Part shown: positions 1 to 32,750 of the stretch, piece after piece
Layout: each line of letters starts with the position of its first letter
Position numbering within the stretch: position 1 is the stretch's first letter
Made by a program: the position numbers and the translations under genes
Notes under the pieces: generated by a model
Seen by the model: only the letters and a program-made list of their open reading frames with translations
Told to the model about the DNA's origin: nothing
The model's database searches: none
Origin: Acidimicrobiia bacterium
Lineage (GTDB): Bacteria; Actinomycetota; Acidimicrobiia; IMCC26256; PALSA-555
Direction: 5' to 3'
Length of the DNA: 35,707 nt
NCBI GenBank assembly: GCA_040902705.1
Contig: JBBDWT010000201.1
Span: 5,488-41,194 of the forward strand

Positions 1-1586
1 CGTGGCTGCGCGCGACCCGCCGGCGCGTCTGGTGGACGAGCTTCGGGCTGTTCTTCGCGCTCTCGCTGGTCTGGACCTTCACCACGCCTCCGCTCGGGGC
101 AGGCGACGAGCTGTCCCACGTGATCCGCGCGCACGCGCTCGCGGACGGCGACTGGACGGGCAGCTCGAAGGCGGGTGAGCCGACGTTCGCCCGGTTCGTC
201 CACGTCCCCGCCATCTACGGCACCGTCGGTTTCGCCAACCTCTGCTTCGTCTTCGATCAGCACGTCCCGGCGTCATGCAGCAGCTTCGAGGGCACGTTGG
301 AGGACGTCGAGCTCCGCACCGACGCCGGTCGCCATCCGCCTGCCTACTACGCGGTCGTCGGCTTCCCCACCAAGTTCGTCGATCCGCTCACGCGCGTCGA
401 CCTGATGCGTGTGATCAATGCGGCGATCTGCGCCGCGCTGATCGCTTCGGCCGTCGCGAGCGCCCGCCGCCTGCAAGGTCGCGCGCTCGTGGCGACGGGG
501 ATCGTGCTCGCGATCACTCCGACGACGTTGTACATGTTCGGCATCGTGAACCCGAACGCACCCGAGGTCGCAGCCGCGATCGCGCTCTGGGTCGCGGGGA
601 CGCTGCTCGTGCGCGCCGCTCCGGAGGAACGCGTCGACCACCGCCTCGTCGCGCGCGTCGGGGTCGCCGCGAGCATCCTGGTGCTGACCCGGCAGACTTC
701 CCCGTTCTGGCTCCTCCTCATCGGGGTCACCCTGCTGGCGCTGTCGAGCCGTGCGACCCTCTGGAAGATCCTCACCGATCGCACGGCCCAGGTCTGGGGC
801 GGGGTGGTGACCGCGGCGGTCGTTGCGCAGCTCGCATGGATCGCGATCGTCAAGCCCCTGGACGTGTCGTACCCGGCGTTCGCGGTCCGCGGAGATCTCG
901 TGGATGCGATCAAGGCGGCGATCGGGGAGATCTACCCGAACTACGTCGAGATGGTCGGCGCGCTGGGGTTCATGAACGAGCCGGTCCCGCAGGGAGTGCT
1001 CGTGCTCTGGACCTGCGGGATCGCGGTGCTCGTCGCCCTCGCGTGGATGTTCGCGAGACGCCAGGTGCGCTGGGTCGTCGCCGGCCTCGTGGCCGCCGTG
1101 CTCGTCGTTCCGACGGCCCTCGAGGCGGCCAAGGCCCGCGAGGCCGGCCTCTTCTGGCAGGGCCGGTACACGCTCCCCCTGGCCGTCGGCATCCCGATCG
1201 TCGCGGCACTCGGGCTCGCGCGCCGCGATGGCGCCGGCCGTCCGGGCGGGGTCCGGTTCGAACGTCTCGTCCGCCTCCTCGCCGGGGTGTTCGTGATCGG
1301 GCAGGTCGTGTCCTACGCGCAGCAGCTGCGCCGCTGGACCGTCGGTTCGCGAGGCTCGCTCGTGTTCTTCCTGAAGTGGCACTGGTCGCCGTCGCTCCCA
1401 CCCTGGCTGCTCCTCGCGACGTTCGTGGGGCTCATCGGCCTGATCGCGTGGTGGCTGTTCGCGGGCGACGACGAGTGCCCGTCCGTCCCTGACGACGTCG
1501 GGCCCCACTCGACCGACCACGCAGCCGTCGAGACGGCCCACGACACACCGGTCGAGGCGAGCGACCACGCGCTTGTCGTCTCGTGA
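1..1586 (+). CDS. DUF2142-family multi-pass membrane protein (GT-C fold, putative lipid-donor glycosyltransferase); 5'-truncated by the window
   Basis: The frame of ORF 120..1586 is open back to base 3 (WLRATRRRVWWTSFGLF...PPLGAGDELSHVIRA), restoring TM1 and the DE motif. Also carries GRHPPAYY, G.VNP, FWQGRY motifs and many TM segments. Paralog of 9516..11114. Confidence 0.8.
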   Translation, partial: WLRATRRRVWWTSFGLFFALSLVWTFTTPPLGAGDELSHVIRAHALADGDWTGSSKAGEPTFARFVHVPAIYGTVGFANLCFVFDQHVPASCSSFEGTLEDVELRTDAGRHPPAYYAVVGFPTKFVDPLTRVDLMRVINAAICAALIASAVASARRLQGRALVATGIVLAITPTTLYMFGIVNPNAPEVAAAIALWVAGTLLVRAAPEERVDHRLVARVGVAASILVLTRQTSPFWLLLIGVTLLALSSRATLWKILTDRTAQVWGGVVTAAVVAQLAWIAIVKPLDVSYPAFAVRGDLVDAIKAAIGEIYPNYVEMVGALGFMNEPVPQGVLVLWTCGIAVLVALAWMFARRQVRWVVAGLVAAVLVVPTALEAAKAREAGLFWQGRYTLPLAVGIPIVAALGLARRDGAGRPGGVRFERLVRLLAGVFVIGQVVSYAQQLRRWTVGSRGSLVFFLKWHWSPSLPPWLLLATFVGLIGLIAWWLFAGDDECPSVPDDVGPHSTDHAAVETAHDTPVEASDHALVVS

Positions 1587-3313
1587 CGACCACGAGCGAG
1601 GATCTCGAAGCGCCGGCCGACCGTCGGCACCGGCATCGCGCGCTCGTGGTGCAGCTCGTAGCGCTCGCGACCGCCGGCGCCTTCCTCCTGTGGGTGAACC
1701 GCCAGCAGTGGTTCCTCGCCGACGAGTGGAACATGCTCGTCGAGCGCCGTCTGGTCGGCGGTGACGGGATGCTCGGCATCTGGGACGCGCACAACTCGCA
1801 CCTCGCCGTGCTCCCGACGATCGTCTACCGCGCCCTCTTCTCGCTGTTCGGTGTGCGCACGTACCTGCCCTATCTCGTCGTCATGATCATCATGCAGCTG
1901 ACGGCGGCGTGGATCCTCTGGAGGCTGTTGCTCCGGCTGGGTATCGCACCGACCCTCGCGACGTTGTCGAGCCTCGCCTTCGCGATCTTCGGTCACGGCT
2001 TCGAGATCACGACGGGCGCATTCGGCATGCAGAACGCCGGAGCGCTCGCGTTCGGGTTCGGCGCGTTGCTCGCGATGCGCGAGACCCCGACGATCGAGCG
2101 TCGCGACGGCCTCGTCCTCGCGCTCGCCCTGGGTGCTCTCCTGACCTCGTCGGGAGTGGCGATCCCACTGACCGCCGTGCTCGTGCTCGTCGCGCTCGTG
2201 CGGCGGGGATGGCGACCGGCGGCCCTCCTGCTCGCAGTGCCGGCCGGCACGTTCGTGTTCTGGTACGTGCTGTACGGCGAGCCCGCGACGAAGGTACAGG
2301 GCGCCCTCGGCGTCTCCGAGGGCCTCCGCCGGGTGCCGACGTTCGTCGCCCACGGGATCTGGTGGACGCTCCAGTACCTGCTCGACGTCGACAGTGGCGG
2401 GCCGATCGTGCTGCTGGCCGCGGCGCTGTTGGTCGCGGTGACCCTGCGATGGCGCGAACGAGCATGGCAGGTCGCATCGTGCATCGCCGCTGGTGCCCCG
2501 CTGTACCTCGCGTTGACGACCTTCGGTCGCGGCGGCTTCGGGCTCGGCGTCGCAGGGAACTCCAGGTACTCCTACATCGTGATCGCGTTCTTGCTCCCGG
2601 TGCTGACGCTCGCCGTCGACCGACTCGCTCGACGGTTCGCGATCGGGCCGACGGTGGCCGTCGTCGCGCTCGTGGTGCTGGTCGGACTCCAGGCGGTCGG
2701 CCTCGAGCGCAAGGCATCGCAGTCGGCGCCGATCGAGCAGGAGACGAAGCGACGCCTCGTTGCCGCCGCGCTCGTGCTGCGAGACGGGATCCGCCCGGTC
2801 GGTGCGCCGGTGCCGGAGTTCGAGCCGGGCCTCGACGCCACGGAGGTCGAGCAGCTCGACCGCGACGGCGACCTGCCCGGAAACGTGCGGCCATCCGCAG
2901 CCGATCTCCTCACCGCCCGCTTGTACCTCGAGGTCGCAACCGTCGAGGCCGAGCCCCTCGGGTCCGCCTACCCGGTGCAGGCGCTCGTGGTGGGAGGGGC
3001 AGCCGTCCATCCCGCTCGGATCGCGGGCTGCGTCCGCACGGAGCGGCTCGAGCCGGGTGACGACGTGCGGCTCTCCTTCCCGGCTGGGGGCAGCGTCCGC
3101 GTCGACGCCGACGAACCGAGCTACGAGCTCGTGCTCGCGCTCGCCCAGGCCGGGGTCCGCAGCCGCGAGCGACCTGCGTTCCTCCCGCCGACGCTCGAGC
3201 TCGTCGTCGTCGACGTCGCGAAGGCGCCGACGCTCCTCCTCGGCCCTCGCACGGTCGCGACGACGCTGCGGATCTGCGGTGCCGAGGCGGGCGCAACCCC
3301 GGCGCGGGAGTGA
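1583..3313 (+). CDS. multi-pass membrane protein, GT-C-like, with C-terminal soluble beta-rich domain
   Basis: GTGA overlap with the upstream stop. TM1 is followed by an acidic loop (WFLADEW...HNSH), then about 11 hydrophobic segments, an SRY motif and a soluble tail with a Cys pair. Confidence 0.65.
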   Translation: MTTTSEDLEAPADRRHRHRALVVQLVALATAGAFLLWVNRQQWFLADEWNMLVERRLVGGDGMLGIWDAHNSHLAVLPTIVYRALFSLFGVRTYLPYLVVMIIMQLTAAWILWRLLLRLGIAPTLATLSSLAFAIFGHGFEITTGAFGMQNAGALAFGFGALLAMRETPTIERRDGLVLALALGALLTSSGVAIPLTAVLVLVALVRRGWRPAALLLAVPAGTFVFWYVLYGEPATKVQGALGVSEGLRRVPTFVAHGIWWTLQYLLDVDSGGPIVLLAAALLVAVTLRWRERAWQVASCIAAGAPLYLALTTFGRGGFGLGVAGNSRYSYIVIAFLLPVLTLAVDRLARRFAIGPTVAVVALVVLVGLQAVGLERKASQSAPIEQETKRRLVAAALVLRDGIRPVGAPVPEFEPGLDATEVEQLDRDGDLPGNVRPSAADLLTARLYLEVATVEAEPLGSAYPVQALVVGGAAVHPARIAGCVRTERLEPGDDVRLSFPAGGSVRVDADEPSYELVLALAQAGVRSRERPAFLPPTLELVVVDVAKAPTLLLGPRTVATTLRICGAEAGATPARE

Positions 3314-3323
3314 CGCGCTTCGC

Positions 3324-4427
3324 CTAGGACTGACCTGGCTGCGGCTTGGCGGCCCAAGCGACGACCCACATGTCCTGCGGCACGGCCGCGCCCTGGATGT
3401 CGACGAACCCGGCCTGCTCGAGGTACCGGCGGAGCTCCTCGGGCGTCGACGACTTGCTGATGTTCGGAGGACGCTCGAGCGGGTGGTAGCGCTCGAGCGT
3501 CTCCATGAAGAACGCCCACCCCGGCTCGCTCAAGAGGTTGAAGTTGTCGATGTACACCCGGCCGCCGGGCCGGAGCACGCGCATCGCTTCGACGACGTAA
3601 CGGAAGCGCTCCCATTCGTCGAGGTGCATGAAGACGACCGTGCAATAGACGACGTCGACCGACTCACTCTCGATCGGCGCGAGGTCCCACCCGCTGATCT
3701 CGACGAAGTCGACGTTGTCGTGCTGCGCGAGGCGTCGGCGCGCGTGCGCCAGCATGTGCCCGGAGACGTCGGTCGCGATCCACCGACGACAGCGCGGCGC
3801 GAGGGACGGGCCCACCCGTCCGACGCCCGCACCGATCTCGAGGATGACGTCGTCGGGGTGGATGCCCACGGTCGACTCGAGCGTCGACACGGTGAGATTC
3901 CCCATGCGCGTGTACACGTCTTCGTCGGTGTAGCCCGCGACCGAGAGCTTGGCCGAGTCCTCGTCGACCGCGACCGCGTTCCACGTCGCCTTGTAGTCGG
4001 CCCGCGCCGGGCGCTCGTCCTCGCCCGGCACCACGCGGACCTCGACCGTTCCGACGGAGGTGCCATCGGTCACGGCGAGCTCGACGCAGACCGGCTCCTC
4101 GAACGGCTCCGGGAGCGCGACGTGGAAGCGGAAGCCGTCGGCTCGACGCGCGTGCGGCAACAGTTGCGGGATGAGGGGCAGGACGTCGTCGCGGGGATCG
4201 TCCGCGATCACCTCGACGGGCGGGCTCCCGGCGAGGGTCGCGCGCACGGTCGCGGGCTCGTCGGCGGCCGAGACCACCCAACCCTCGACGCGCAGCAGTG
4301 GCACCGCGGACGACACCGTCGTCGCCGAGGGCTGGTCGAGCCACATCAAGAACGGCTGGTCCTCGCCGTCAGCCGAACCCTTCCGGCGGCCTCGCTCGGT
4401 CCGCGTCGCACCGATGAGCACGTTCAA
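3324..4427 (-). CDS. class I SAM-dependent methyltransferase with N-terminal Ig-like (GW..RxDV..GF) domain
   Basis: Motifs ILEIGAGVGR, DVS, VDVVY, RVLRPGG. A GGAGG Shine-Dalgarno lies just upstream of TTG 4427 and GTG 4421 (either could be the start). Confidence 0.85.
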   Translation of the reverse strand: MNVLIGATRTERGRRKGSADGEDQPFLMWLDQPSATTVSSAVPLLRVEGWVVSAADEPATVRATLAGSPPVEVIADDPRDDVLPLIPQLLPHARRADGFRFHVALPEPFEEPVCVELAVTDGTSVGTVEVRVVPGEDERPARADYKATWNAVAVDEDSAKLSVAGYTDEDVYTRMGNLTVSTLESTVGIHPDDVILEIGAGVGRVGPSLAPRCRRWIATDVSGHMLAHARRRLAQHDNVDFVEISGWDLAPIESESVDVVYCTVVFMHLDEWERFRYVVEAMRVLRPGGRVYIDNFNLLSEPGWAFFMETLERYHPLERPPNISKSSTPEELRRYLEQAGFVDIQGAAVPQDMWVVAWAAKPQPGQS

Positions 4428-4473: not shown

Positions 4474-5406
4474 TCAGTCCGGCGATTCCTGGATGTCGAG
4501 CACGAGCGCCGAGATCAGCAGCTGAACGCCGATCAGGAAAGGTACCACCGACAGCAGCACCGTCCCCGTGGTCGCCGCACCCGGACCGATGGTCTCCGCG
4601 ACCACCCAGATGCCGAAGCCGACGCCCCAGAGGAGGAGCGCGAAGCCGGTGAAGAAGAACAGCGCGATCGGGGAGAAGGACCGGATCGTGTACTTCCAGA
4701 TGAGGCGCTTCCAGAAGCCGCGCACGAGGAGCCAGCCGATCGCGGGGATGACCCGGCGGAGCTGGATCCCCGACACCTCCGTCCCGTACCGGGCCGGGAC
4801 GGAGACGTCGAGTGCGCGCACGCCGACGATGTTGAGATTGATGAGCAGGTCGTTCTCGAACTCGTAGCCCTTCGAGATCTCCCCGAAGGGCACGAGCTCG
4901 AGCGCCTCCCGCGTGATCGCCGTGTATCCGTTCTGCGGGTCGAAGAGGTGCCAGTAGCCGCTCGCGAGCTTGGTGAGGAACGACAGCACGATGTTGCCGA
5001 ACACGCGGTAGCGGGGCATGCCGGCGAACGAGCTGCGCGAGAAGAACCGGTTCGCCTTGGTGAATCCGTAGCCACGATCGATGATCGGATCGAGCAGCGC
5101 GGGCAGGTACGAGGGGTCCATCTGGTCGTCGCCGGCGAAGACCACGTCGATGTCGCTGCCGAGATCCAGGGCGCGCCTGTGCGCGGTGAGGATCGCCCCG
5201 CCGACGCCCTGGTTCTCCTCGTGCGTGACCACCACGGCTCGAGGATCCCCGACGGCCGCGGCGACCTCGGCGGTGCGGTCGGTGCTGGCATCGTCGACGA
5301 CGACGACGATGTCGACGAGCTCAGGAAGCCCACGGATGACGTCCGCGATGTGCGCCTCCTCGTTGTACGCGGGCACCACCGCCGCGATCTTCCGATCTCG
5401 GTACAT
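4474..5406 (-). CDS. GT2 glycosyltransferase, polyprenol-phosphate glycosyltransferase type (GtrB/DPMS-like) with two C-terminal TM helices
   Basis: ATG at 5406 (MYRDRKIAAVVPAYNEE). Motifs VDDASTD, NQGVG, GDDQMD, DPQNGY; two C-terminal hydrophobic helices. Confidence 0.85.
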   Translation of the reverse strand: MYRDRKIAAVVPAYNEEAHIADVIRGLPELVDIVVVVDDASTDRTAEVAAAVGDPRAVVVTHEENQGVGGAILTAHRRALDLGSDIDVVFAGDDQMDPSYLPALLDPIIDRGYGFTKANRFFSRSSFAGMPRYRVFGNIVLSFLTKLASGYWHLFDPQNGYTAITREALELVPFGEISKGYEFENDLLINLNIVGVRALDVSVPARYGTEVSGIQLRRVIPAIGWLLVRGFWKRLIWKYTIRSFSPIALFFFTGFALLLWGVGFGIWVVAETIGPGAATTGTVLLSVVPFLIGVQLLISALVLDIQESPD

Positions 5407-5410
5407 GGCC

Positions 5411-6379
5411 TCAGCCGCTCGGTCCCGACGGACCGCTCCCGAGGCGGGCCGCGGCCTCGACGCGCTCGACCAACCGCAGCGCTTCGACACCGTCGGTTGC
5501 CCCGACCTTCGGCGGCGTCCCCGTCGACACCGCCCGGACGAACTCCTGGAGCTCGAGCAGCAACGGCTCCCCCTGGGCCTCGAGGAACGGGATCTCCACC
5601 ACGCCGCTCTGGCGGTATCGAGCGCCCTCGGACGACAAGAACTCGGAGTGCTCGACCCGGTTGATCGTGACGTCCTGGCGCACGAGGTCGACGCTGACGA
5701 AGCGGTCTGCCTGGGTGATCCGGAGCTCCCGGATCTTCTGCTGCCCGACGCGGCTCGCGATGAGACTCGCCGTCATCCCGTTCTCGAACCGGAGGAGCGC
5801 GCTCGCCAGATCGGCCGACTCGGAGCGGACGCTCATCGTCATGGCAGAGACGTCGACCACCTCGCAACGCGCGATCGATCGGATCACGTCCAGATCATGG
5901 ATCATGAGATCGGTGACCACTCCATCGCGGACGCGAGGAGAGTACGGGCTGATGCGGGCAGCCGCGACGTGCACGACGTCACCGAGCAGCTGGTCGAGCT
6001 CGAGCACGGCCGGATTGAAGCGCTCGACGTGACCGACCATCAGGATCACCCCCAGGCTCTCCGCCGTCTCCGCGAGTGCTTCCGCGTCGGCGACGGTCGT
6101 CGCCAGGGGCTTCTCGATGAGCACGGGGACGCCGGCCTTCAAGAGCGTGAGCCCGATGTCGCGGTGGAGCGAGCTCGGAACCGCCACGATCGCGGCGTCG
6201 ACGTGACCGAGCACGTCACCGACGTCGGTCGACGCCTGCGCACCGATTGCGGTGGCGAGCCGGCCGGCGCGCTCGGCGTCAGGGTCCACGACGTAGGTGA
6301 CCGTCGCGTCGCGGAGCCCCCGCGCGATCCGCGCGTGGTTCGTACCCATGATCCCGGCCCCGATGATCGCCAGCCTCAT
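5411..6379 (-). CDS. Gfo/Idh/MocA oxidoreductase, UDP-GlcNAc(A) 3-dehydrogenase-like (GnnA/WlbA/WbpB type)
   Basis: ATG at 6379 (MRLAIIGAGIMG). Motifs EKP, GHVERFNPA, DLMIHDLD. Operon context with the aminotransferase and acetyltransferase. Confidence 0.85.
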   Translation of the reverse strand: MRLAIIGAGIMGTNHARIARGLRDATVTYVVDPDAERAGRLATAIGAQASTDVGDVLGHVDAAIVAVPSSLHRDIGLTLLKAGVPVLIEKPLATTVADAEALAETAESLGVILMVGHVERFNPAVLELDQLLGDVVHVAAARISPYSPRVRDGVVTDLMIHDLDVIRSIARCEVVDVSAMTMSVRSESADLASALLRFENGMTASLIASRVGQQKIRELRITQADRFVSVDLVRQDVTINRVEHSEFLSSEGARYRQSGVVEIPFLEAQGEPLLLELQEFVRAVSTGTPPKVGATDGVEALRLVERVEAAARLGSGPSGPSG

Positions 6380-7517: not shown

Positions 7518-8083
7518 GTCGCCTCCCGGCTTCGACACACGTCACAACGGAAGCCTGGCGGCGGCGCATCGGTGCGGGCAACCACGCGACCGCACTCGCA
7601 GGCCCACCCGATCTGGTGCGCCGGGTTCCCGACCACGATCGCGTGATCGGCGACGCTCCGGGTCACGACGCTCCCCGCGCCGACGACGGACCACGCTCCG
7701 AGCTCGACACCGCACACGATGGTGGCGTTCGCGCCGATCGATGCACCTCGTCGTACCGTCGTCGGCACGAGCTCCCAGTCGCCTGAGGCCCGGGGGTAGC
7801 GGTCGTTCGTGAACACCGCGCTCGGGCCGACGAACACGTCGTCCTCGACGACCACGCCGTCGTAGACCGACACATTGTTCTGCACCTTCACCCGGTCACC
7901 GATGCGAGCGCCGACGTCCACGTAGACGTTCTTCCCGAGAGTGCAGTCTCGCCCGACGACCGCACCGTCGCGTACGTGGGAGTGATGCCAGACGCGCGTC
8001 CCCGCGCCGATCCGGGCTCCCGGGTCGACGACGGCGGTGTCATGGGCGAAGTACAGCGTGGCGTCGTGCAGCGTGGGGTCCAC
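7514..8083 (-). CDS. hexapeptide-repeat N-acetyltransferase (WbpD/WlbB-like)
   Basis: Left-handed beta-helix repeats, VWH, KVQNNVSVY, FTND.YPR, and C-terminal GWACECG...CDVC. Start taken at GTG 8083. Confidence 0.88.
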   Translation of the reverse strand: MDPTLHDATLYFAHDTAVVDPGARIGAGTRVWHHSHVRDGAVVGRDCTLGKNVYVDVGARIGDRVKVQNNVSVYDGVVVEDDVFVGPSAVFTNDRYPRASGDWELVPTTVRRGASIGANATIVCGVELGAWSVVGAGSVVTRSVADHAIVVGNPAHQIGWACECGRVVARTDAPPPGFRCDVCRSREAT

Positions 8084-8162
8084 TACGATCCGTCGGCGGC
8101 CGACCGGAACCCCGGCCGGGGAGCGTCGAATGCTCCGATGCGTCAGCGCCCAGATCGTAGTG
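8081..8162. promoter_or_regulatory. divergent promoter region bounded by the 10-bp inverted repeat CACTACGATC, each arm containing a TACGAT -10-like hexamer
   Basis: cactacgatc at 8081-8090 and gatcgtagtg at 8153-8162; palindrome ccccggccgggg at 8110-8121. Confidence 0.4.
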
Positions 8163-27116: not shown

Positions 27117-27964
27117 ACTTCCTCCGCGAGGCGTCGCTGGTGCCGGTCGAAGAACCAGTATCCGAACACGAGGACGCCGACGGCCCATGCCACGAGGTAC
27201 AGCATCGTGTCGAGCGGCGGGAACCGCAGGTCGTAGAGCACGTCACGGTACGCCTGCACGAGCTGCACGAGCGGGTTGAGCCGATAGATCGTTCCGAGCG
27301 GGATCTCCATCCCGAGGAAGTCCGCGGTGTCGGGGACGACCGAGATCGGGTACACGATCGGCGTCGAGTAGAAGAGCGCCTGCATCGCGATGGCGATGAA
27401 GTGCTTGACGTCTCGGAAGTACACGTTGGCGACGCTCAGCAGCAGGCTGATGCCGAAGATGAACAGCGTCTCGATCGCGATCATCACGAGCACCATCGGG
27501 ATCCACGGGATGACGAAGTTCCCGGCGATCAGCAGGACCACCAGCACAACCGACATCTCGATGAACATCGACACGAGCAGGGATCCGACAACGGCCATCA
27601 CGAGGATGTCGCGCGGGAAGTACACCTTCTTGATGAGCCCGGCGTTCCCCACGAGCGCTTCGAGGGAGCTCTGCACGCTGTTGGAGAAGAACGTCCATGG
27701 GATGAGCGCGCACAACAAGTAGATCACGAAGTTCTGGAGCCCCGACGGATCACCGCGCGGAGGCTCGATCTGGAGGAAGAACCCGAAGACGAGCCAGTAG
27801 ATCGCCACCATGGCCAGCGGGTTCAGCAACGACCACGTCCAGCCGAGCGCCGACTTCTTGTATCGGCCGCGGAGCTCCCGCAGCGTCAGGTTGATCACGA
27901 GGTCGCGGCGTTCGATCGCATCCGCGAAGCGGCGGACGACGCGCGGGCGTCCGAGCTGCATCAC
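27113..27964 (-). CDS. wzm: polysaccharide ABC exporter permease (second copy)
   Basis: Motifs RELRGRYKKSALGWTWSLLNP, LIKKVYFPR, YFRDV, FYSTPIVY, LAEEV. Start GTG 27964 or ATG 27961. Confidence 0.92.
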   Translation of the reverse strand: MMQLGRPRVVRRFADAIERRDLVINLTLRELRGRYKKSALGWTWSLLNPLAMVAIYWLVFGFFLQIEPPRGDPSGLQNFVIYLLCALIPWTFFSNSVQSSLEALVGNAGLIKKVYFPRDILVMAVVGSLLVSMFIEMSVVLVVLLIAGNFVIPWIPMVLVMIAIETLFIFGISLLLSVANVYFRDVKHFIAIAMQALFYSTPIVYPISVVPDTADFLGMEIPLGTIYRLNPLVQLVQAYRDVLYDLRFPPLDTMLYLVAWAVGVLVFGYWFFDRHQRRLAEEV

Positions 27965-29142
27965 CAGGGGAGCTCGCTCGCCGCGCCGCGAATGGCAAGC
28001 ATCGTGTGCGTGTGATCCGGCGCCGGCTGGCGCGCGACGAGCCGGAGCGTGTCGAAGAAGTCGGAGGACGACTGGTCCCAGTCGGGCCACGCGCGCGCCG
28101 TGCGCAATGCACCGTGGCGGAGATCCCGGACCAGGTCGGAACGATCTCGCAACGTCCGCACCGCTTCGATCACCGCGCCCCGGTCGTACATCGGTACGAC
28201 GAGACCGTTCACCCCGTCGCGCACGAACTCGTCCGAACCGGTGACGTCGTACGTGACGACCGTGCCGCCGCAGTGGAACATCTCGAGCGGCGGTCCGTAC
28301 ATGCCTTCGACGTGGCTCAGCTTCAAGAGGACGGGGCACGACCGGTAGATGGCGGGGGTCTGCTCGATCGGGACCCGGGAGAACACGCGGTCCACCCCCC
28401 GGAGCTCGGTCAGGTCGCTCGACGTGAGCAGCCAGATCTCGTCTGCACCCCCGGAGCGCGCGAGCTCGACGGCGTCCTCCACGTTCTTCATCGGCACCTC
28501 GATCGGGCCTTCGATCAGCACCCGGAGGCGGATCCCGCTCTCGGGGGCGACGGTCGGTCCGACCGGGGTGTACACGTCCTTGCGAATCCCGTTGTGGACG
28601 AGGAACGACGGGCGTCGATGCTCGAAGGCGAGGTACGCCTGGATCCACCGGGCGATGGTGATGACCGGGAGATCGAACGTGTACGTGAGGGCCGCGAGCG
28701 GCGGTGCCCAGGAGTCCGTCGTGCCACCGTAGAAGCGCGACTCGACCGACTGCACGAAGTAGACCGCGTGCCGACAGCGCAGGCGGGGCAGCTCGTACAC
28801 GGTGCGCCACATCGTCGCGACGACGACGTCGAACTCGCGATCCTCGGCGTCCGCCAGCGAGAGCAGCGGTAGCTCCTGGAGCGCCTCGTGCCACGTGCCG
28901 TACTCGGGCTGATGCTCGAACATGTGCACGATCGTCACGTCGGCACCCTGGCGCTTCGCGTACAGGGCGTGCTGGAGGATGACGTACGTCCCGCCGCTGA
29001 TATCGGTCGAACCGATCAGGAACGCGATCGACAATGGTCCGTCGGCACCGCGCGAGGGCGCCGCGAACCTCGAGAAGTACTCGTGGAGGAACGGGTCGCC
29101 CGCCGATCTGCCCACGCGCGTCCGTTCCTCTCGCCCGGGCAT
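27961..29142 (-). CDS. GT4-family (GT-B) glycosyltransferase
   Basis: ATG 29142 (TGATG overlap). Motifs ISGG..VI.QHA, VVATMWRT, YFVQSVE, KN, EGMYGPPLEMFHCG. Confidence 0.85.
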   Translation of the reverse strand: MPGREERTRVGRSAGDPFLHEYFSRFAAPSRGADGPLSIAFLIGSTDISGGTYVILQHALYAKRQGADVTIVHMFEHQPEYGTWHEALQELPLLSLADAEDREFDVVVATMWRTVYELPRLRCRHAVYFVQSVESRFYGGTTDSWAPPLAALTYTFDLPVITIARWIQAYLAFEHRRPSFLVHNGIRKDVYTPVGPTVAPESGIRLRVLIEGPIEVPMKNVEDAVELARSGGADEIWLLTSSDLTELRGVDRVFSRVPIEQTPAIYRSCPVLLKLSHVEGMYGPPLEMFHCGGTVVTYDVTGSDEFVRDGVNGLVVPMYDRGAVIEAVRTLRDRSDLVRDLRHGALRTARAWPDWDQSSSDFFDTLRLVARQPAPDHTHTMLAIRGAASELPW

Positions 29143-32100
29143 CAGTGCAGCTCCTTCCACATCTCGCGCAGGATCTCGAGCGCTCGCGCGGGGAGCCAGG
29201 CACGGTAGCCCGGCACCCACTGGCTCCTCCGCGCCTCCTCGCTCACGACCTCGGTTGCCCCGACACGGGAGAGGAGCGAGCGCTGGGGCTGCTCCTTGGC
29301 GAACGGCGACACGTTCATCGCGCCGAACGTGTCGTCGTGCGACGATCCGAACCAGATGTCGGCGACGCCACCCGGTGGTCGACCGTAGTAGTCGATCACG
29401 GTCTCGTTGAGCTCGCGCCGCAGCATGCTCGTGGTCAGCCCGTTCTCCACGAGCCAGTCCGCGACGCGTGGTGCCGCGGCAAGCACCCCGGCCTGGAACG
29501 AACGGATCTCCGACGACGCGCGCGGCCCCTCGTGCTCGTGCACGGGCATCGACCGCCCATCGGCACGAATCGCGTAGTCCACGACGGAGGGCACGTCGGG
29601 CGTCAGCGGAGCCTCGATCGCGGCCGGCGGACTCACGAGGGTGAACGGCTCGCCCGCGTTCCCGTCGAAGGCGACGGCGTGCTTCGTGACGTTCGCGAGC
29701 TGCTCGTTGAGGAAGGGGAAGAGTCCGAGATACACGCCGACGAGACGGCGTTCCGGGAGCAGGCGAGCCAGGTTGTCCTGGATGGTCCCGCGCCATCCGA
29801 CGTCGACCATGACCAGCTCTCGCTCGGAGTCGTCGATCTGCTGATGGAGGTATGCCTCGAAGGCGCGCCGCCGGTCGTCGAGCTTCGCCTCGACCCGCGC
29901 TCGTACCTCGGGCAGCTCGAGCAACGCGAGCGCTCGTTCGTCGTCCGCGATCGACGGAACGACCTCGTCGAGCGAGAGGCCGACCGCGAGCACCTCCTCG
30001 GCGAACCCGTCCGCACCGACGCCGATCGACTCGAACAGCGCCCTCGGAGACTGGTCCGCGTACTGCGACCACATCCGCGACAGCTCCTGCGGCTGCAGCG
30101 ACGACAACGAGACGCCGAAGGTCGACCGTCGGCTGACGTCGAGATGGCGCCCGACAGGGGGCGTCATCGATCCGGCGAGCCGCGGCGCCACCAGGTCGTG
30201 CACCTGCCGGAGGAACGCGCCCTCGCGACTGAGGTAGTACACGCTCCGCAGCCCGCGCCCCAGTGCCTCTTCGACTGCGGCCGCGACCAGGGCGACGGGA
30301 AGCAGCGCCGTGAGCACACCGGCGTGCGCGGCGCGGCGCTCGGTCTCGCCGCGCCCCGCGTCGGAGACGAGCACATCCACGACGCGGAGGAGATCGTCGT
30401 GCTGCGCGGCGACGAGCGCGCCGAGGTGCTCGGGAGTGAGCTCTCCGGGACCGGGCAGCGGTGAGGGCGAGATCCGCACCAGCGCCGCGAGTCCCCCGCC
30501 CGCGACCTGGCGCTCGCCGTCGGACCAGGGGTTGTCGCCGATGTGAAGGTGTCGTTCCGGCGCGACGCCGAACCGCGACCGCACGAGCTCGAAGAGCTCT
30601 CCGTCGACCCGTTTCGAGGCCGACACATCGCACGAACAGAGCACCTCGATGTCGTCGAGGACGACACCGCACGACTCGAGCACCGCACTGAGGTCGTTGG
30701 CGGACAGGTAGAAGTCGGAGAGGACCGCGAGCTTCGGTGGCGTCGGACGATCGCGCAGCGCTTCGAGCACAGCGACGACGTCGTCGATCCGCTCGGTGCA
30801 GCGGCACTCCTCCTCGGCTTCTTCACGCGCGAGCTCCGCCGCGATCGGCCGCGCCTTGCGCGCGCTGAGCCCGAGCACCTCGCTGAGATGACGGCTGAGC
30901 ACGTCGTCGAGGCGGTACTCCTCGTGCGCGCTGCTGGCAGCGATGGCGGCTTCCGCCGCGACGCGCCCGCGGAACAGGTCCCAGGGAGTCGTCCCCTCGG
31001 GCAGGTCGCGGTGATGACGTAGGAAGATCCGGCGGGCCGTGGCGAGCTTGGGCGCGTCGGCCGGCCTGGTCCGCACCACCAGCGTGTCCCACAGGTCGAA
31101 GGTCACGAGCTCGACGTCGGCTCGCGCGAGCGCATCCAGCGTGACCAGACGCGCCGGCTGGTCCGGCGTGAGGAGCTCGCACTCGACGATCGTGCGCTGC
31201 GCGCTCGGCGGGAGCGCTCCGGCCGAGGTTGCCCGCCGGCGTTGCTCGGGGTTCGCGTAGAACCCGGTCGCATATCCGACCGTCCAGTAGTGCTCGAGCG
31301 GGCTCCTGCCCGTGGCCCGGACCTCGGGGTGGCGATCGAGGTACCAGCGCGTGCGCAGGAGCGGCGACGGATCATGGCCGACGACCCACCCCTGCTCCAG
31401 GTGGTGCTCGAGCGGGTTCCGACCCAACGCGGCGACATCGCGGTAGCGCCGGAGGTACCAATCGGTCCAGAACAGCGCTGAGGGGTCTCGACCTTCTGTC
31501 CAGCCGCTGCTGCGGTAGTGCTCCAACGGGTCGACGCGTGCGGCCGCGACATCGGGGTACCGGTCGAGGTAGTACTCGGCGTCGAACACGCTGGCGAGGC
31601 GCTCGTCGAGGTCGGCTGCTCCACCGATCGTGATCCTCAGGTTCGTGCCGAGATGTCGATTCGTCACCCGGACCGCTCGCCGAGCCCCCCGCAGCAGCTT
31701 GCGAAGGATGCGGCGCGTCATCGTGACCGGCACGATCGGAGGTGCCGCGGCAACATCGCCGCCTTCGTCTCCGGTTGCCACGCGCCCGGCGTGCTCGAGC
31801 TCGCGCCGGGTGATCTCGACTTCGGAGCGGAGCACGTCGATCTCGCGCTCGTGGTCCGCGATGGTCGAGTCGCGCGCTTCGAGCGCCGCCGTGTGCTCTC
31901 GGAGCTGGAGCTCGTCGAGCGCGGCTCGGGCACGCACCTCGTAGTACGACTTCCAGCGCGCGAGCTCGTCGCCGACGAGCACGTCGAGACGCTCGGTGCC
32001 CTTGGGCAACAGCAGCCCGAGACCGAAGGAGTGCTCGAACGCCAACGACGGGTTCGTCGAGCTGACCTCGCCCCACAGCTGCGCGGAACCCGTGCGCGTC

Positions 32101-32600
32101 CAGGATGCGACCCCGTGGAGCAGCACGACCCCGTTCGGCGCGAGCTTCGGGAGCCAGGCCTCGAACGTGTCCTTCAGCTCGTCGAACGACTCGACGATGC
32201 CGAGCACCAGCAGATCGACGGACTCGTCGTCGACCGCGACGAGTGCGTCGTGCGCGAGCCCCCGGTGGAGGTGGACGTCGAGCCCCGGGAACACGGACGC
32301 GCGGATCCGCTCGACGACCTCGACCCCGCCGTCCGCGCCGGTCGACGAGAGCTCCCAGCTGTCGACCGCGTGCAGGGTCGCTGTCCGGCCGCGGTCACGT
32401 ACCGCCTGGCAGCACGCGAAGAGCACTGCGCCGGAGCGGGCGCCGAGCTCGACGACGACGTCCGGCCCGCCCCATGCGACGAGGTCGTAGACGAAGTTGC
32501 GATGCCCGGACCACGGGCCGACCGCGTGGGTCGGGTCGAGGTCGTCGGAAGCGAACCGCGGCGTGGAGAGGACCCACGGATGTTCGCTGGTGCTCCACAT
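29142..32600 (-). CDS. multidomain protein: pseudo-methyltransferase + coiled coil + 3 repeats + HAD phosphatase + glycan phosphoribosyltransferase (putative ribofuranosyltransferase, GT136-type)
   Basis: HAD motifs FDLWDTL, LSDFY, SK, HIGDN..SD; then YLSREG, VSRRS and VDVGWRGTIQ. The N-terminus aligns with 26178..27116. Confidence 0.8.
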   Translation of the reverse strand: MWSTSEHPWVLSTPRFASDDLDPTHAVGPWSGHRNFVYDLVAWGGPDVVVELGARSGAVLFACCQAVRDRGRTATLHAVDSWELSSTGADGGVEVVERIRASVFPGLDVHLHRGLAHDALVAVDDESVDLLVLGIVESFDELKDTFEAWLPKLAPNGVVLLHGVASWTRTGSAQLWGEVSSTNPSLAFEHSFGLGLLLPKGTERLDVLVGDELARWKSYYEVRARAALDELQLREHTAALEARDSTIADHEREIDVLRSEVEITRRELEHAGRVATGDEGGDVAAAPPIVPVTMTRRILRKLLRGARRAVRVTNRHLGTNLRITIGGAADLDERLASVFDAEYYLDRYPDVAAARVDPLEHYRSSGWTEGRDPSALFWTDWYLRRYRDVAALGRNPLEHHLEQGWVVGHDPSPLLRTRWYLDRHPEVRATGRSPLEHYWTVGYATGFYANPEQRRRATSAGALPPSAQRTIVECELLTPDQPARLVTLDALARADVELVTFDLWDTLVVRTRPADAPKLATARRIFLRHHRDLPEGTTPWDLFRGRVAAEAAIAASSAHEEYRLDDVLSRHLSEVLGLSARKARPIAAELAREEAEEECRCTERIDDVVAVLEALRDRPTPPKLAVLSDFYLSANDLSAVLESCGVVLDDIEVLCSCDVSASKRVDGELFELVRSRFGVAPERHLHIGDNPWSDGERQVAGGGLAALVRISPSPLPGPGELTPEHLGALVAAQHDDLLRVVDVLVSDAGRGETERRAAHAGVLTALLPVALVAAAVEEALGRGLRSVYYLSREGAFLRQVHDLVAPRLAGSMTPPVGRHLDVSRRSTFGVSLSSLQPQELSRMWSQYADQSPRALFESIGVGADGFAEEVLAVGLSLDEVVPSIADDERALALLELPEVRARVEAKLDDRRRAFEAYLHQQIDDSERELVMVDVGWRGTIQDNLARLLPERRLVGVYLGLFPFLNEQLANVTKHAVAFDGNAGEPFTLVSPPAAIEAPLTPDVPSVVDYAIRADGRSMPVHEHEGPRASSEIRSFQAGVLAAAPRVADWLVENGLTTSMLRRELNETVIDYYGRPPGGVADIWFGSSHDDTFGAMNVSPFAKEQPQRSLLSRVGATEVVSEEARRSQWVPGYRAWLPARALEILREMWKELH
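31248..31589 (-). repeat. three tandem 38-aa intragenic repeats (F...[YW]YL..YPDV......PLEHY...GW..G..P)
   Basis: VFDAEYYLDRYPDVAAARVDPLEHYRSSGWTEGRDPSA / LFWTDWYLRRYRDVAALGRNPLEHHLEQGWVVGHDPSP / LLRTRWYLDRHPEVRATGRSPLEHYWTVGYATGFYANP. Confidence 0.9.
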
Positions 32601-32603
32601 GTC

Positions 32604-32750
32604 TCAGGCCAGCAGCTCGGGCTGCTCCGTGGGGGACGCGCTCCGGTGCCCTCGAAGTGGGACCAGCTCGACTCTCAGCGCTCGCTGAGCGAGGTGCCAC
32701 CCGTTGCTGCAATGGTCCCAGACGTCCTTGACCGGCGTGAGCACTCGCAT
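32604..32750 (-). pseudogene. wzm 5' relic / 48-aa small ORF
   Basis: MRVLTPVKDVWDHCSNGWHLAQRALRVE... aligns without gaps to the wzm start VLAPVTEVWNHRSIVMNLTQRELKAK; 56/78 nt identical by hand count. Confidence 0.7.

Follow-up and report, generated by a model that had tools for sequence, protein, structure and literature searches.

An ABC-transporter-dependent glycan gene cluster with paralogous parts and degenerate methyltransferase heads in an uncultured Acidimicrobiia bacterium

Results

The window, meaning the whole stretch of 35,707 nucleotides analysed here, carries most of a glycan gene cluster of ~36 kb from an uncultured sediment actinobacterium, a monoderm member of the Acidimicrobiia. 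We built the gene map from a GC3 frame plot and Pfam/NCBIfam scans. To the left, the cluster extends ~4.3 kb beyond window base 1, with RmlD, RmlB, RmlC and one further membrane protein. To the right, it ends at 32600, because the true flanking genes encode a membrane protein, an M24 peptidase and LipA; an ORF at 32798-34654 lies in the wrong frame and was discarded. The locus is soundly assembled: in three other studies, contigs from sediment bridge the junctions g9-g12, g11-g13, g13-g16, g16/g17, g17-g19 and g20-g21. Chance is no concern, since this is a gene cluster whose arrangement those contigs bridge. Related loci come from entries titled as Acidimicrobiia MAGs. The core gene set recurs at 57-86% identity in three of them (L001, L003, L004) and in a genome of the same genus (G014), and a more distant relative (L002) has only g21-g20-Wzm-Wzt within 13.7 kb of its locus. 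These data support an uncharacterised ABC-transporter-dependent glycan factory in Acidimicrobiia.

Pfam, NCBIfam and structure searches bore out the inventory originally predicted for the locus: two Wzm/Wzt pairs with Wzt-C domains, seven methyltransferase (MT) folds, at least ten glycosyltransferase (GT) domains and three GT-C-like proteins. The exporter pairs are g16/g15 and g19/g17, both with Wzt_C (cut-off 30.4 bits). Five MT folds are intact and two degenerate; six score above Pfam cut-offs (g3, g10, g11, g12, g18 and g21 residues 50-162), and the seventh is g9 residues 1-160. The ten GT-A/GT-B domains comprise five canonical GT2 (g4, g7, g9, g13, g14), three GT-B (g9 WsaF, g14, g20) and two non-canonical GT-A domains (g9 residues 291-516, g13 residues 1-225). 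Two DUF2142 proteins (g1, g8) and one PMT-like membrane protein (g2) make up the GT-C-like set. Most parts occur as paralogous pairs (g1/g8, 40% identical; g3/g12, 48% over 378 aa; g13/g9, 32%, blastp E 1.5e-48; g7 and the GT2 of g14, 43%; g15/g17, 46%; g16/g19, 42%; g18 and the N-terminal part of g21, 42%). This suggests two assembly lines, a WsaE/WsaF-type rhamnan line and a ribofuranose (Ribf) line, in keeping with the parallel-line logic of the original prediction.

The left block holds candidate decoration genes. The DUF2142 membrane proteins g1 (3..1586, + strand; polytopic, start uncertain) and g8 (9516..11114, + strand) score 91.5 bits (PF09913) and 116.9 bits, each against a cut-off of 30.1, and are GT-C-like. 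For the rhamnose wall polysaccharides of lactococci and streptococci, DUF2142 proteins are proposed as the GT-C transferases or polymerases (PMC9746298, PMC12599335). g8 is 63% identical to its G014 counterpart; no match to g1 lies in G014 between g3 and rmlB, and g2 was not found in the G014 locus. g2 (1583..3313, + strand), a membrane protein whose C-terminal part is soluble, gave no match in Pfam and NCBIfam scans; its Atlas model has PMT_2/TMTC clusters as structure neighbours (TM 0.57-0.64), which serves as a lead only. g4 (4474..5406, − strand) joins a GT2 domain (Pfam 71.2 bits) to C-terminal membrane helices and is 86% identical to its G014 counterpart. It is a candidate polyprenyl-phosphate sugar synthase, with NCBIfam matches to AglJ, PpgS and dolichyl-P-hexose transferase, every one below cut-off. 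g5 (5411..6379, − strand) is a GFO/IDH/MocA oxidoreductase (Pfam 100.5 bits) that resembles UDP-GlcNAc 3-dehydrogenase (NCBIfam NF040723, E 1.2e-60, below cut-off), and g6 (6396..7538, − strand) is a DegT/DnrJ/EryC1 sugar aminotransferase (PF01041, 367 bits). In g7 (7985..9514, + strand), an insertion of ~150 residues separates the halves of the GT2 domain (Pfam GT2 at residues 79-189, Glyco_tranf_2_3 at 360-427). A search of the organism's own 90%-complete genome turned up no GtrA-type flippase, and the lipid-linked decoration route thus stays incomplete.

Four intact methyltransferases carry Ig-like N-domains. g3 (3324..4421, − strand; start refined) pairs a Big_7-like domain, whose residues 20-140 match Big_7-bearing proteins in the Atlas (TM ~0.7), with Methyltransf_11 (67.4 bits). 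g12 (17151..18290, − strand; start refined; Methyltransf_11, 65.3 bits) is its window-specific paralogue. In g10 (14762..16003, + strand), an aligned Ig-like domain and a Cys4 ribbon precede Methyltransf_11 (49.4 bits, profile positions 47-95 only) with LDAGSG and NLE; the protein is conserved in L001, L004 and G014. The window-specific g11 (16000..17181, − strand) is a class I MT (Pfam MT25, 28.0 bits, cut-off 27), alignable to RsmC (2zul) in motifs I and II, and it has no match in L001, L003 or G014.

g9 (11072..14674, − strand) is a 1200-aa polymerase composed of a degenerate MT head, a helical linker, a non-canonical GT-A domain, a GT2 domain and a WsaF-type GT4. Pfam places WsaF_N at 39.9 bits and WsaF_C at 78.6 bits, and the part matches PDB WsaF 2x0d at E 2e-16. 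AF2 modelled residues 1-520 at a mean pLDDT of 87, giving the head (residues 1-160; 14195..14674, − strand) a Rossmann-like fold. The head has no Pfam match and was recognised by homologue comparison: homologues P0024, P0021 and P0033 match PF13489 at its positions. Where homologue heads read VNLGCG..GWxNVD..GHVLEH, g9 and its clade read VLSGVG..GWYTVAL..VACLER, with no PF13489 match and without the G-loop that homologues retain. We classed 188 g9 homologues by regular expressions on three MT motifs: the head is missing from 77, at least one motif survives in 51 and 28 are unclassable. The remaining 32 have a head with none of the three motifs, and consist of 15 from the window clade, 14 from a second clade and three others. 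Among orthologues, identity is 38-54% in the head, 38-48% in the linker and 75-87% in the GT2 and WsaF parts.

Two GT2 domains had been predicted to be dead. Both indeed lack a canonical DxD, while their deadness is unsupported, because they are strongly conserved and have invariant motifs of their own. The first, g9 residues 291-516 (13127..13804, − strand), reads ESGD and retains an invariant WDDD. Foldseek against the PDB identified a GT-A fold, with K4CP as best match (8.6e-12) and SpsA, WrtF and TarP also found, and hhalign matched it weakly to the neighbouring GT2 (probability 2.7%). The second is the N-terminal part of g13 (18581..20089, + strand), which combines a non-canonical GT-A (residues 1-225; weak Pfam match, E 0.01) with GT2 and is a paralogue of g9 residues 365-780. 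Both share WDDD, RFRPSWSPE and WDLLLR motifs, invariant in a family of at least 814 proteins, and rank among its better conserved parts. Beside them, g14 (20076..22571, − strand) is a GT2 and GT4 protein, 82% identical in L001 and L003.

The right end of the cluster encodes the Ribf module. g21 (29142..32600, − strand; 1152 aa) comprises a pseudo-MT24 head, a 65-residue helix, a basic helix, helical repeats, a HAD phosphatase and a phosphoribosyltransferase. The predicted ribofuranosyltransferase-like module proved well founded: residues 496-1152 (29145..31115, − strand; PF00702, 34.7 bits) form a HAD-like phosphatase and PRPP-type ribofuranosyltransferase module, of which residues 496-962 match the solved 'Ribofuranosyl transferase' 7SHG at E 7e-20 and Bcs3 at 8e-6. 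Strings common to g21 and 7SHG in the alignment are FD..DT, GDN, LSREG and VDVGW.GTIQDNL. The GT4 protein g20 (27961..29142, − strand) adjoins a g21 orthologue in each of L001-L004.

The g21 head (residues 1-205; 31986..32600, − strand) has LVLGIVESF and LHGV in place of the family motifs HIDGxHxY and HD. Across 150 MT24 representatives, H.DG.H is retained in 148 and HD in 149. The two that deviate are P0119 and the g21 cluster's representative, P0167. A phosphatase-ribosyltransferase fusion is present in 21 representatives, 19 of them with intact motifs. Four of five g21 orthologues have lost the motifs; L002 retains them in an intact fused MT24, with no separate g18 within 13.7 kb of its locus. 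g18 (26178..27116, − strand; PF13578, 92.5 bits), a candidate terminator, is an intact MT24 O-methyltransferase with a long helix and a basic tail; it carries HIDGCH and HD and aligns to PDB 6g7d. Compared over the same genome pairs, the g21 head is 50-53% identical and g18 67-69%. By these sequence identities, the degenerate heads evolve faster than the GT2/WsaF parts (g9) and than g18 (g21). The prediction of two motif-less MT domains thus held for g9 and g21. Judged by their motifs, both heads are probably inactive, and could conceivably still bind SAM or a glycan.

We modelled g21 residues 1-300 with g18. The complex scored 0.61, against 0.01 for the best of three controls, with contact agreement of at least 78% between runs and partner pLDDT of at least 84; this mark is attained in 116 of the 157 solved complexes and in 2 of the 215 mismatched pairs, a rough calibration here, where self-made alignments were used. 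The modelled interface consists of helix residues 212-275 and residues 8-11, a parallel coiled coil beside the dead MT24 head. The model does not separate a heterodimer from two homodimers, as the paralogues are 42% identical and close cousins of true partners also pass. The sole modelled contact runs along the helix; therefore any docking would use the coiled coil, contrary to the proposal that pseudo-enzyme domains are the docking modules. On this model, g18 may dock on g21 via a common stalk.

Recurring coiled coils, also predicted, were found only in g21 (helix 211-275; 31776..31970, − strand; AF2 pLDDT above 90, mean 87.8 over residues 1-500) and its paralogue g18, and not in g9, which has short helices only. 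On sequence reading, the d positions of the g21 helix are mostly polar. A crude heptad scan gave weak signals for g21 (0.36 vs 0.31 ± 0.03 in shuffles) and g18 (0.30 vs 0.25 ± 0.03) and set no protein clearly apart from shuffles. The 65-residue helix looks short for a ruler; the coiled coil of WbdD is longer.

Wzt1 (g15; 22692..23954, − strand) and Wzt2 (g17; 24946..26181, − strand) each join an ABC ATPase (ABC_tran, 73.4 and 76.2 bits) to Wzt_C (45.5 and 87.2 bits), and the ABC-2 permeases are Wzm1 (g16; 23959..24771, − strand; ABC2_membrane, 66.1 bits) and Wzm2 (g19; 27113..27961, − strand; 50.8 bits). The Wzt_C of g17 shares 28% identity with its g15 counterpart and 73% with those of its own orthologues; this low mutual identity fits two different ligands. 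Which exporter would serve which line is uncertain, because g16/g15 lies upstream of g21 and does not adjoin g14 in L001 and L003.

Discussion

Building on the domain inventory, paralogy, conservation in relatives, motif loss and helix observed directly, we infer the sugars, linkages, methyl positions, exporter-line matching, capping versus internal methylation, docking and wall attachment. We consider it moderately probable that the locus encodes two paralogous assembly-and-export lines, for a rhamnan and a ribofuranose glycan, plus a decoration block, making envelope glycopolymer by an ABC-transporter-dependent route. In the rhamnan line, rmlBCD just left of the window would supply dTDP-rhamnose, g9 (through its GT-A, GT2 and WsaF-GT4 domains), g13 and g14 would polymerise it, and one Wzm/Wzt pair would export the product. 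In the ribofuranose line, g21 would transfer ribofuranose-5-phosphate from PRPP and then strip the phosphate, g20 would add a second sugar, g18 (a metal-type MT24 with a basic tail, mounted on a 65-residue helix) would methylate the chain end, and the other pair would export the chain. g4-g8, with g1/g2 in this strain, would make a lipid-linked amino sugar that DUF2142/GT-C proteins attach outside the membrane. LCP ligases encoded elsewhere would fix the polymers to peptidoglycan; the organism's own genome (90% complete) has four LCP and two Glycos_transf_4 matches. g9 and g21 may descend from terminator-stalk-polymerase fusions whose MT heads since decayed, with methylation taken over by separate intact MTs: g18, which would have arisen by duplication of the head and stalk of g21; g10; and three Ig-tagged proteins (g3, g11, g12). 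Since two caps would not need five intact MTs, internal positions may receive much of the methylation.

An unlikely alternative to two separate glycans is one composite wall polymer, either two chains that both leave by ABC exporters, or a chain with its side chain, joined outside by DUF2142/GT-C proteins, or a single repeat of Rha and Ribf for which the two exporters serve differently terminated glycoforms. All genes lie in one conserved block that includes two DUF2142 proteins and one PMT-like protein, a WpsJ-type DUF2142 protein is proposed to link a chain to rhamnan, and the joining of lactococcal rhamnan and PSP is proposed as a model (PMC9746298). In Klebsiella pneumoniae O7, rhamnose and Ribf share one repeat unit and one exporter, and separate polymerase proteins were tested for interaction (PMC11231755). 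The near-complete duplication of functions would be unneeded for one polymer, however, and the two Wzt_C domains are just 28% identical. Moreover, L002 has g21-g20-Wzm-Wzt without rhamnan genes within 13.7 kb, and therefore the Ribf line can stand by itself. It is improbable that the locus O-glycosylates S-layer or other proteins in the manner of Geobacillus Wsa, with rhamnan on protein and not wall. WsaF_N and WsaF_C in g9, its match to 2x0d, a layout of MT head and two GT-A modules that mirrors WsaE (PMC2943079), and a Wzm/Wzt exporter with rml genes, as in slg clusters, all recall such systems. Against this, the 90%-complete, hence incomplete, MAG shows no Wzy_C/WsaB-type and no SLH match, and has four LCP matches.

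A separate question is whether the dead domains are relics with no docking or scaffold role, g18 and g21 homo-oligomerising via their own helices and g18 acting as a free WbdD-kind terminator tethered to the membrane through a basic tail. We regard this as a real possibility, somewhat short of an even chance. The g9 head evolves about as fast as its linker, its absence from 77 of 188 homologues makes it dispensable for the polymerase, the modelled g21-g18 interface avoids the dead domain's body, and paralogous helices are expected to score as partners whatever their pairing in the cell. Retention argues the other way: in the 15 clusters (90% identity) of the window clade, the dead g9 head stays full-length and has a confidently modelled fold, and a second clade of 14 shows like decay and retention. 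Likewise, all four close orthologues of g21 keep the dead head, each with a separate g18, though as kin they probably record one event.

The combination of parts, which was not recognised at first from any characterised system, does have a characterised counterpart. Like the Klebsiella O7 system (PMC11231755), the locus brings together Wzm/Wzt, an Ig-like module, a methyltransferase terminator carried by a coiled coil and the sugars rhamnose and Ribf, the terminator role and the sugars being predicted here. By analogy with O7, a single mixed Rha/Ribf polymer is also conceivable at this locus. Klebsiella O7 is the closest characterised analogue, and the design is not unprecedented.

Gene content of the cluster

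Because the window has a G+C content of about 70%, raw ORF lists are crowded with shadow frames; genes were called from a codon-position GC plot together with Pfam and NCBIfam scans. The cluster comprises 21 genes, g1 to g21 from left to right (bases 3–32600), and is followed on the right by a small membrane protein, an M24 aminopeptidase and lipoyl synthase. We discarded the ORF at 32798–34654(−): it translates to an Arg-rich sequence that drew no phmmer match in PDB, and both frame plot and Pfam support two other genes there.

The window covers bases 5488–41194 of a 71.7-kb contig of a metagenome-assembled genome (MAG) of 3.18 Mb in 239 contigs, 90% complete with 6% contamination. Left of the window on this contig lie RmlD, RmlB, RmlC and one polytopic membrane protein without a Pfam family, with MetH farther out. 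The left edge of the cluster thus falls about 4.3 kb outside the window, and its rml genes supply dTDP-rhamnose; an RmlA-type gene occurs only elsewhere in the genome, outside the locus. Between MetH and RmlC, L006:1295–3061(+) on contig C201 encodes a polytopic membrane protein of 588 aa, its C-terminal part soluble, that falls in no Pfam family and is a possible fourth GT-C-like member of the cluster.

The original prediction named two Wzm/Wzt pairs with Wzt_C domains, seven methyltransferase (MT) folds and at least ten GT-A/GT-B domains, and each is borne out by profile searches. The exporters, g16/g15 (Wzm1/Wzt1) and g19/g17 (Wzm2/Wzt2), match PF01061 (66.1 and 50.8 bits), PF00005 (73.4 and 76.2 bits) and Wzt_C PF14524 (45.5 and 87.2 bits; cut-off 30.4), the last being the only Wzt_C matches in the host genome. 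These are components of ABC-transporter-dependent glycan export of the O9a/O8/O12 type. Six MT domains score above Pfam cut-offs (g3, g10, g11, g12, g18 and g21 residues 50–162); a seventh MT fold makes up residues 1–160 of g9, a 1200-aa polymerase. The glycosyltransferases comprise five canonical GT2 domains (g4, g7, g9, g13, g14), three GT-B domains (WsaF-type in g9, g14, g20) and two non-canonical GT-A domains (g9 residues 291–516; g13 residues 1–225). Two of the three proposed GT-C-like proteins, g1 and g8, hold as DUF2142 proteins (91.5 and 116.9 bits; cut-off 30.1); for g2 the only guide is the structural neighbours of a stored model (PMT_2/TMTC proteins, TM 0.57–0.64), which we treat as a lead.

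The g7 GT2 carries an insertion of about 150 residues that looks beta-rich (window 8570–9010(+), residues about 200–345), and its Pfam match is split into 79–189 and 349–427. Among the sources listed, no RNA dataset carried window 24000–33000.

Two proposed assembly lines from diverged paralogues

Almost every function in the locus is doubled as diverged paralogues. Identities are 40% for g1/g8, 48% for g3/g12, 32% for g13/g9 residues 365–780, 43% for g14/g7, 46% for the two Wzt, 42% for the two Wzm, and 42% for g18/g21 residues 1–303. The Wzt_C domains are 28% identical to one another, against 73% to their own orthologues in the related locus L001, the pattern expected from two different ligands. 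In a more distant relative, L002, only g21-g20-Wzm-Wzt are found within 13.7 kb of sequence; the ribofuranose line is therefore able to exist alone. Doubled functions, Wzt_C divergence and the L002 arrangement together lead us to interpret the locus as a pair of lines. The first, for rhamnan, would consist of rmlBCD, g9, g13, g14 and one exporter, and the second, for ribofuranose, of g21, g20, g18 and the other exporter; which exporter serves which line is a matter of inference. A decoration block would add the g5 oxidoreductase, the g6 aminotransferase, g4 (a GT2 with membrane helices), g7 and g8, plus g1 and g2 in this strain.

Across the host's order, Wzt_C was found in 106 of the 121 genomes searched, a count that takes in four unpublished genomes (G055, G076, G093, G119), and in 66 of the 71 high-quality ones. 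Since the domain is near-universal there, these monoderms may in general export glycans by an ABC route that depends on a cap or terminus. By hand count, 29 of the 121 genome rows have at least two Wzt_C matches, a figure that does not give copy numbers. In one of these rows a single domain is split, in four the second match falls below the Pfam cut-off, and two are unpublished genomes (G055, G093).

Outside the window, the 1968-aa g9 homologue P0031 carries a Wzt-type ATPase with Wzt_C (PF00005, PF14524), an MBOAT domain (PF03062), an MT head, GT2 and WsaF in one chain by precomputed Pfam; in this fusion, exporter ATPase and polymerase are physically joined.

Core gene set and a variable slot

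A synteny comparison across related Acidimicrobiia MAGs, proposed with the original prediction as a check, recovered a shared core gene set in L001, L003, L004 and a same-genus genome (G014). Full-length g21 relatives lie in four Acidimicrobiia MAG loci (43–60% identity in the best segment; one of the four labelled Bifidobacteriaceae), and a fifth relative in a Desulfobulbia MAG (L005). L001, L003 and L004 have in common g21, g20, Wzm2, g18, Wzt2, g14 and g13. In L001 and L003 these are joined by g9 and by the Wzm1/Wzt1 pair, which in both loci lies upstream of g21 and not adjoining g14; neither g9 nor the pair was seen within the 13.5 kb of L004 sequence. g10 is present in L001 and L004. The same-genus genome continues g10, g9, g8, g7, g6, g5, g4, g3, rmlB, rmlD, rmlC, and is without g1, g2, g11 and g12.

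Contigs from three other studies span g9–g12, g11–g13, g13–g16, the g16/g17 junction, g17–g19 and g20–g21 at 95–100% identity. The gene order of the window is therefore no assembly artefact, and the stretch recurs in sediment metagenomes of several studies. At window 24774, between g16 and g17, one base is missing from the X3 and X6 contigs (two sequencing runs); the difference between strains is minor and lies in no gene.

In the slot between g13 and g9 (window 14762–18290; g10, g11, g12), the number of MT genes varies: zero in L003, one (g10) in L001, L004 and the same-genus genome, three in the window. The slot has the look of a methylation region that differs from strain to strain, much as serotype-variable regions do. 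The N-termini of g10, g11, g12 and also g3 form a beta-sandwich of about 120 residues with the signature P..V.GW...R.DV...GF, a feature absent from the original prediction. In an Atlas model, the g3 N-domain superposes on Big_7-type Ig domains with a TM of about 0.7. As relatives of Wzt_C, these N-domains were rejected (hhalign probability 0.3%). Between the Ig-like and MT domains of g10 (residues about 145–180; window 15170–15300(+)) lies a C..C...C..C stretch without a Pfam match, reminiscent of a small zinc ribbon.

The predicted ribofuranosyltransferase fusion g21

The predicted ribofuranosyltransferase (Ribf-transferase)-like module is found in g21, a 1152-aa protein, where residues 496–962 align with residues 35–493 of the 7SHG chain (E 7e-20) and with Bcs3 (8e-6). 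g21 and 7SHG have the strings FD..DT, GDN, LSREG and VDVGW.GTIQDNL in common, and the g21 HAD phosphatase scores 34.7 bits against PF00702 (cut-off 26.4). g21 matches a PRPP-dependent ribofuranosyltransferase with HAD phosphatase, its predicted function. In 7SHG (Thermobacillus composti) and H. influenzae b Bcs3 CriT/CrpP (PMC10299916), the order is the same as in g21: phosphatase, then transferase. g21 differs from these proteins in a 495-residue N-terminal extension, made up of a pseudo-MT24, a stalk, a basic helix and three helical repeats, and in being without a ribitol-phosphate transferase or an SH3b domain.

The three tandem helical repeats (g21 residues 328–460; window 31221–31619(−)) are about 36 residues each and belong to no Pfam family. 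Their pattern is [FW]..(Y/W)YL.R(Y/H)(P/R)(D/E)V...(G)..P(L)EH(Y/H)...G...G.(D/R)P. By phmmer the repeat occurs in 13 of 150 representatives of the MT24 family, 12 of the 13 fused to the Ribf module, and by tblastn also in the Desulfobulbia locus L005.

Retained heads without catalytic motifs

The original prediction held that two MT domains lack catalytic motifs. Family comparison agrees and places them as the dead METHYLTRANSFERASE heads, or N-terminal domains, of g21 and g9. Both g18 (92.5 bits) and the g21 head (46.1 bits) match Methyltransf_24 (MT24, PF13578; cut-off 26.3). g18 and PDB 6g7d both have LLHIDGxH...HD; the g21 head reads LLVLGIVE...HG, with DSWELS replacing DTWxGD and ELGARSGAV replacing ELGTHxGxS. 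Hence the family motifs H.DG.H, HD and D.W.GD are present in g18 and missing from the g21 head. The lost residues are presumably metal-binding or catalytic in cation-dependent O-methyltransferases. From a pool of 13,182 library proteins at E ≤ 0.001, we scored these motifs in the best 150 representatives: H.DG.H is kept in 148, HD in 149 and D.W.GD in 147. The exceptions are P0119, in which a single Asp is gone, and P0167, which represents the cluster that g21 itself belongs to.

Four of the five g21 orthologues have lost the motifs, and all four of those loci also carry a separate intact g18. The L002 orthologue keeps them, and no separate g18 was seen within its 13.7 kb. Because the four orthologues are kin, their loss is probably one event. 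The phosphatase-ribosyltransferase part is present in 21 of the 150 MT24 representatives, and 19 of these 21 have intact MT24 motifs, which argues that the ancestral form was an active MT24-stalk-Ribf-transferase fusion. Such fusions are the nearest relatives of g18.

The g9 head belongs to another MT group. Heads of g9 homologues start (M/V)(R/K)VNLGCG...GWxNVD...GHVLEH, and the three scanned match PF13489 (E 1e-6 to 2e-3). g9 and its own clade instead read MRVVLSGVG...GWYTVAL...VACLER and do not match PF13489; g9 residues 1–160 have no MT Pfam match at all. In a crude regex sort of 188 retrieved homologues, 77 were headless; 51 had a head that kept one or more of three motifs, all three in 22 cases; 32 had an N-terminus of head length carrying none of the motifs; and 28 were not classable. 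The 32 motif-less heads divide into 15 from the window clade, 14 from a second clade (VRVTLGG...VHPDP) and three others. Members of the second clade are about 1150 aa long and start VRVTLGG..GW..VHPDP..DADVHLP (P0041, P0283, P0284, P0299, P0305, P0306, P0309, P0319, P0324–P0326, P0330, P0331, P0337). By regex and eye, this clade looks like an independent decay of the same g9-family head.

AF2 gives g9 residues 1–160 as a confident alpha/beta domain; a Foldseek search with a 520-residue g9 model returned GT-A folds only among the matches listed, with no confirmation there of the N-terminal head fold. Sequence divergence is faster in the two dead heads than in the catalytic parts. Among orthologues, identity is 38–54% for the g9 head versus 75–81% for GT2 and 79–87% for WsaF; for the g21 head it is 50–53%, versus 67–69% for g18 across the genome pairs used for that head.

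Non-canonical GT-A domains

Two GT2 domains had likewise been taken to lack catalytic motifs. The canonical DxD after strand 4 and the Asp after strand 2 are indeed absent from g9 residues 291–516 (GT-A') and g13 residues 1–225, but the label 'dead' is not secure. In a weak profile alignment (probability 2.7%), VVGPN of g9 GT-A' falls opposite VVDNG of the neighbouring GT2, and ESGD opposite NDDT; the g13 equivalent is DAGD, and the family consensus AGD. By eye, the other five GT2 domains have VVDxxS and NDD/NND/DD motifs. What makes inactivity insecure is that g9 residues 291–516 adopt a GT-A fold (Foldseek), have invariant or near-invariant residues of their own (D372, WDDD 397–400, RFRPSWSPE, WDLLLR), and are widely conserved: the GT-A'-GT2 core is 54–60% identical to Blastococcus, Modestobacter, Klenkia and Acidothermus proteins, with 814 matches at E ≤ 1e-10. 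Over residues 288–790, the Blastococcus, Modestobacter and Klenkia homologues show 55–57% identity. A phmmer search of g13 against PDB gave no match at E ≤ 0.1. WsaE is described with two active GT domains following the MT domain (PMC2943079), and in Klebsiella O7 ORF6 the DxDD-bearing GT2 module and the NxD-bearing one are each active (PMC11231755). We lean slightly towards g9 and g13 carrying functional GT-A domains with a non-canonical site.

A modelled stalk pairing between g18 and g21

Dead domains had been proposed as docking modules, a role that the partner complex model does not show: the modelled contact runs along the stalk, the long helix behind the head, and not through the dead domain. 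The AF2 model of g21 residues 1–500 (mean pLDDT 87.8) contains an MT fold, an uninterrupted helix (211–275), a basic helix (292–316) and the three helical repeats (328–460). In g18, an intact MT24 is followed by a helix homologous to the g21 stalk, and a basic tail. The complex model of g21(1–300) with g18 scored 0.61, against 0.01 for the best of three controls; in calibration, 116 of 157 solved complexes score this high, as do 2 of 215 mismatched pairs, figures that hold roughly, own alignments having been used. Run agreement covers at least 78% of contacts, and partner pLDDT is at least 84. The modelled interface is a parallel, in-register coiled coil between g21 212–275 and g18 216–279, plus residues 8–11. 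Because the two chains are paralogous, the model fits a heterodimer and two homodimers alike. If docking occurs, it would be via the stalk and not the dead domain. A heptad scan, a crude method, was weak for the g18 helix and showed no clear separation from shuffles for any of the proteins. Between head and GT-A, g9 has short helices, the longest at 223–251; its intact-head relatives have a longer helical insert.

These observations allow a tentative and, in our judgement, rather improbable reading: an asymmetric terminator-ruler-polymerase in which a dead-headed polymerase stalk pairs with the active duplicate g18, pseudo-enzyme heads being recurrent in chain-length control. Here g18 would be a duplicated active head-plus-stalk that forms a parallel heterodimeric coiled coil with the polymerase stalk, and each complex would hold a single active site for termination, set a constant distance away from the ribofuranose polymerase. 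Decay with retention would have occurred at least two more times, in the unrelated MT head of a widespread actinobacterial rhamnan polymerase family.

Discussion

The sugars and glycan functions assigned to the locus are predicted from gene content. As to where the polymers go, the host genome has four LCP matches and two Glycos_transf_4 matches; Wzy_C (PF04932; WsaB-type), SLH (PF00395) and GtrA-type proteins gave no match in this 90%-complete genome, which falls short of proving absence. The presence of LCP with no Wzy_C or SLH match favours wall-linked polymers over an S-layer glycan.

To our knowledge, ABC-transporter-dependent glycan assembly with a coiled-coil-ruler terminator has been worked out almost only in Gram-negative O-antigens. 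The same terminator-ruler design would now be found in an uncultured monoderm lineage. None of the features of the locus is a new kind of system. What is new is that the whole machine is doubled and has two Wzt_C exporters, that an MT24 and a stalk are fused to the Ribf transferase, that dead heads are retained, and that the stalk may be heteromeric. Testable additions are the widespread fusion of an O-methyltransferase, a stalk and a PRPP-type ribofuranosyltransferase; terminator heads that have repeatedly lost catalytic motifs and are still retained; and a candidate heteromeric stalk of active enzyme and dead paralogue. If the g18-g21 pairing is true, it offers a simple system in which to study how polymer length depends on the number of heads and the length of the stalk; if false, the locus would still be of use as a record of how modules for wall-glycan synthesis are shuffled. 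The literature searched contained no papers on Acidimicrobiia glycan loci or on an MT-ribofuranosyltransferase fusion.

Judged by analogy, the closest characterised design is Klebsiella O7, followed by Geobacillus Wsa, the O9a WbdD logic, and lactococcal/streptococcal rhamnose wall polysaccharides with DUF2142. The K. pneumoniae O7 locus encodes ORF6 (MT-kinase-CBM-coiled coil-GT2-GT2), the ribofuranosyltransferase ORF7, ORF3, rmlDC and wzm/wzt (PMC11231755). Our locus resembles it in implied rhamnose and Ribf chemistry, a two-domain PRPP-type Ribf transferase and Wzm/Wzt, with ORF6 and ORF7 compared by description only; in an MT placed distally on the helical stalk of a polymerase with several GT domains; and in an Ig-like module on terminating enzymes, here g3, g10, g11 and g12 (PMC11231755). 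Unlike O7, it has two exporters and two enzyme sets, a Ribf transferase itself fused to an MT head and stalk, motif-less polymerase MT heads alongside separate MTs, no kinase domain found, and the MT families MT24 and MT11/23; its host is a monoderm with LCP ligases and without lipid A.

By its layout, g9 resembles WsaE plus WsaF of Geobacillus stearothermophilus NRS 2004/3a in one chain: an MT-type head, two GT-A domains and a WsaF-type GT4 (PMC2943079, PMC3898925). Its WsaF_N and WsaF_C score 39.9 and 78.6 bits (cut-off 27), with PDB 2x0d at E 2.3e-16. The Wsa system also has rml genes and Wzm/Wzt, and its 2-O-methyl cap is the proposed export signal (PMC2943079, PMC3898925). The MT head is described there as active in WsaE, whereas in g9 it is degenerate, and the first GT-A of g9 differs from WsaE/WsaF in having no canonical DxD. 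Neither a named WsaE nor Klebsiella ORF6 was among the 120 matches listed for g9 residues 288–790.

The layout of g18 is that of WbdD in E. coli O9a and K. pneumoniae O3 (catalytic head, helix, basic C-terminal segment), and both Wzt carry Wzt_C, as in O9a/O3 cap recognition (summarised in PMC11231755; see also PMC3482155). Compared with WbdD, g18 has an MT of another family (PF13578), no kinase, a helix of 65 residues, and a polymerase partner with its own homologous stalk.

With the lactococcal/streptococcal RgpCD and WpsI/WpsJ loci, the locus has in common a monoderm host, an ABC-exported rhamnan, variable accessory genes, and GT2 enzymes paired with DUF2142 polytopic proteins for extra-membrane steps (PMC9746298, PMC12599335). 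Those loci use one ABC exporter and a Wzx-type flippase for the second chain (PMC9746298, PMC12599335), whereas in ours no flippase was found, and it has many MTs, a Ribf module and two ABC exporters with Wzt_C.
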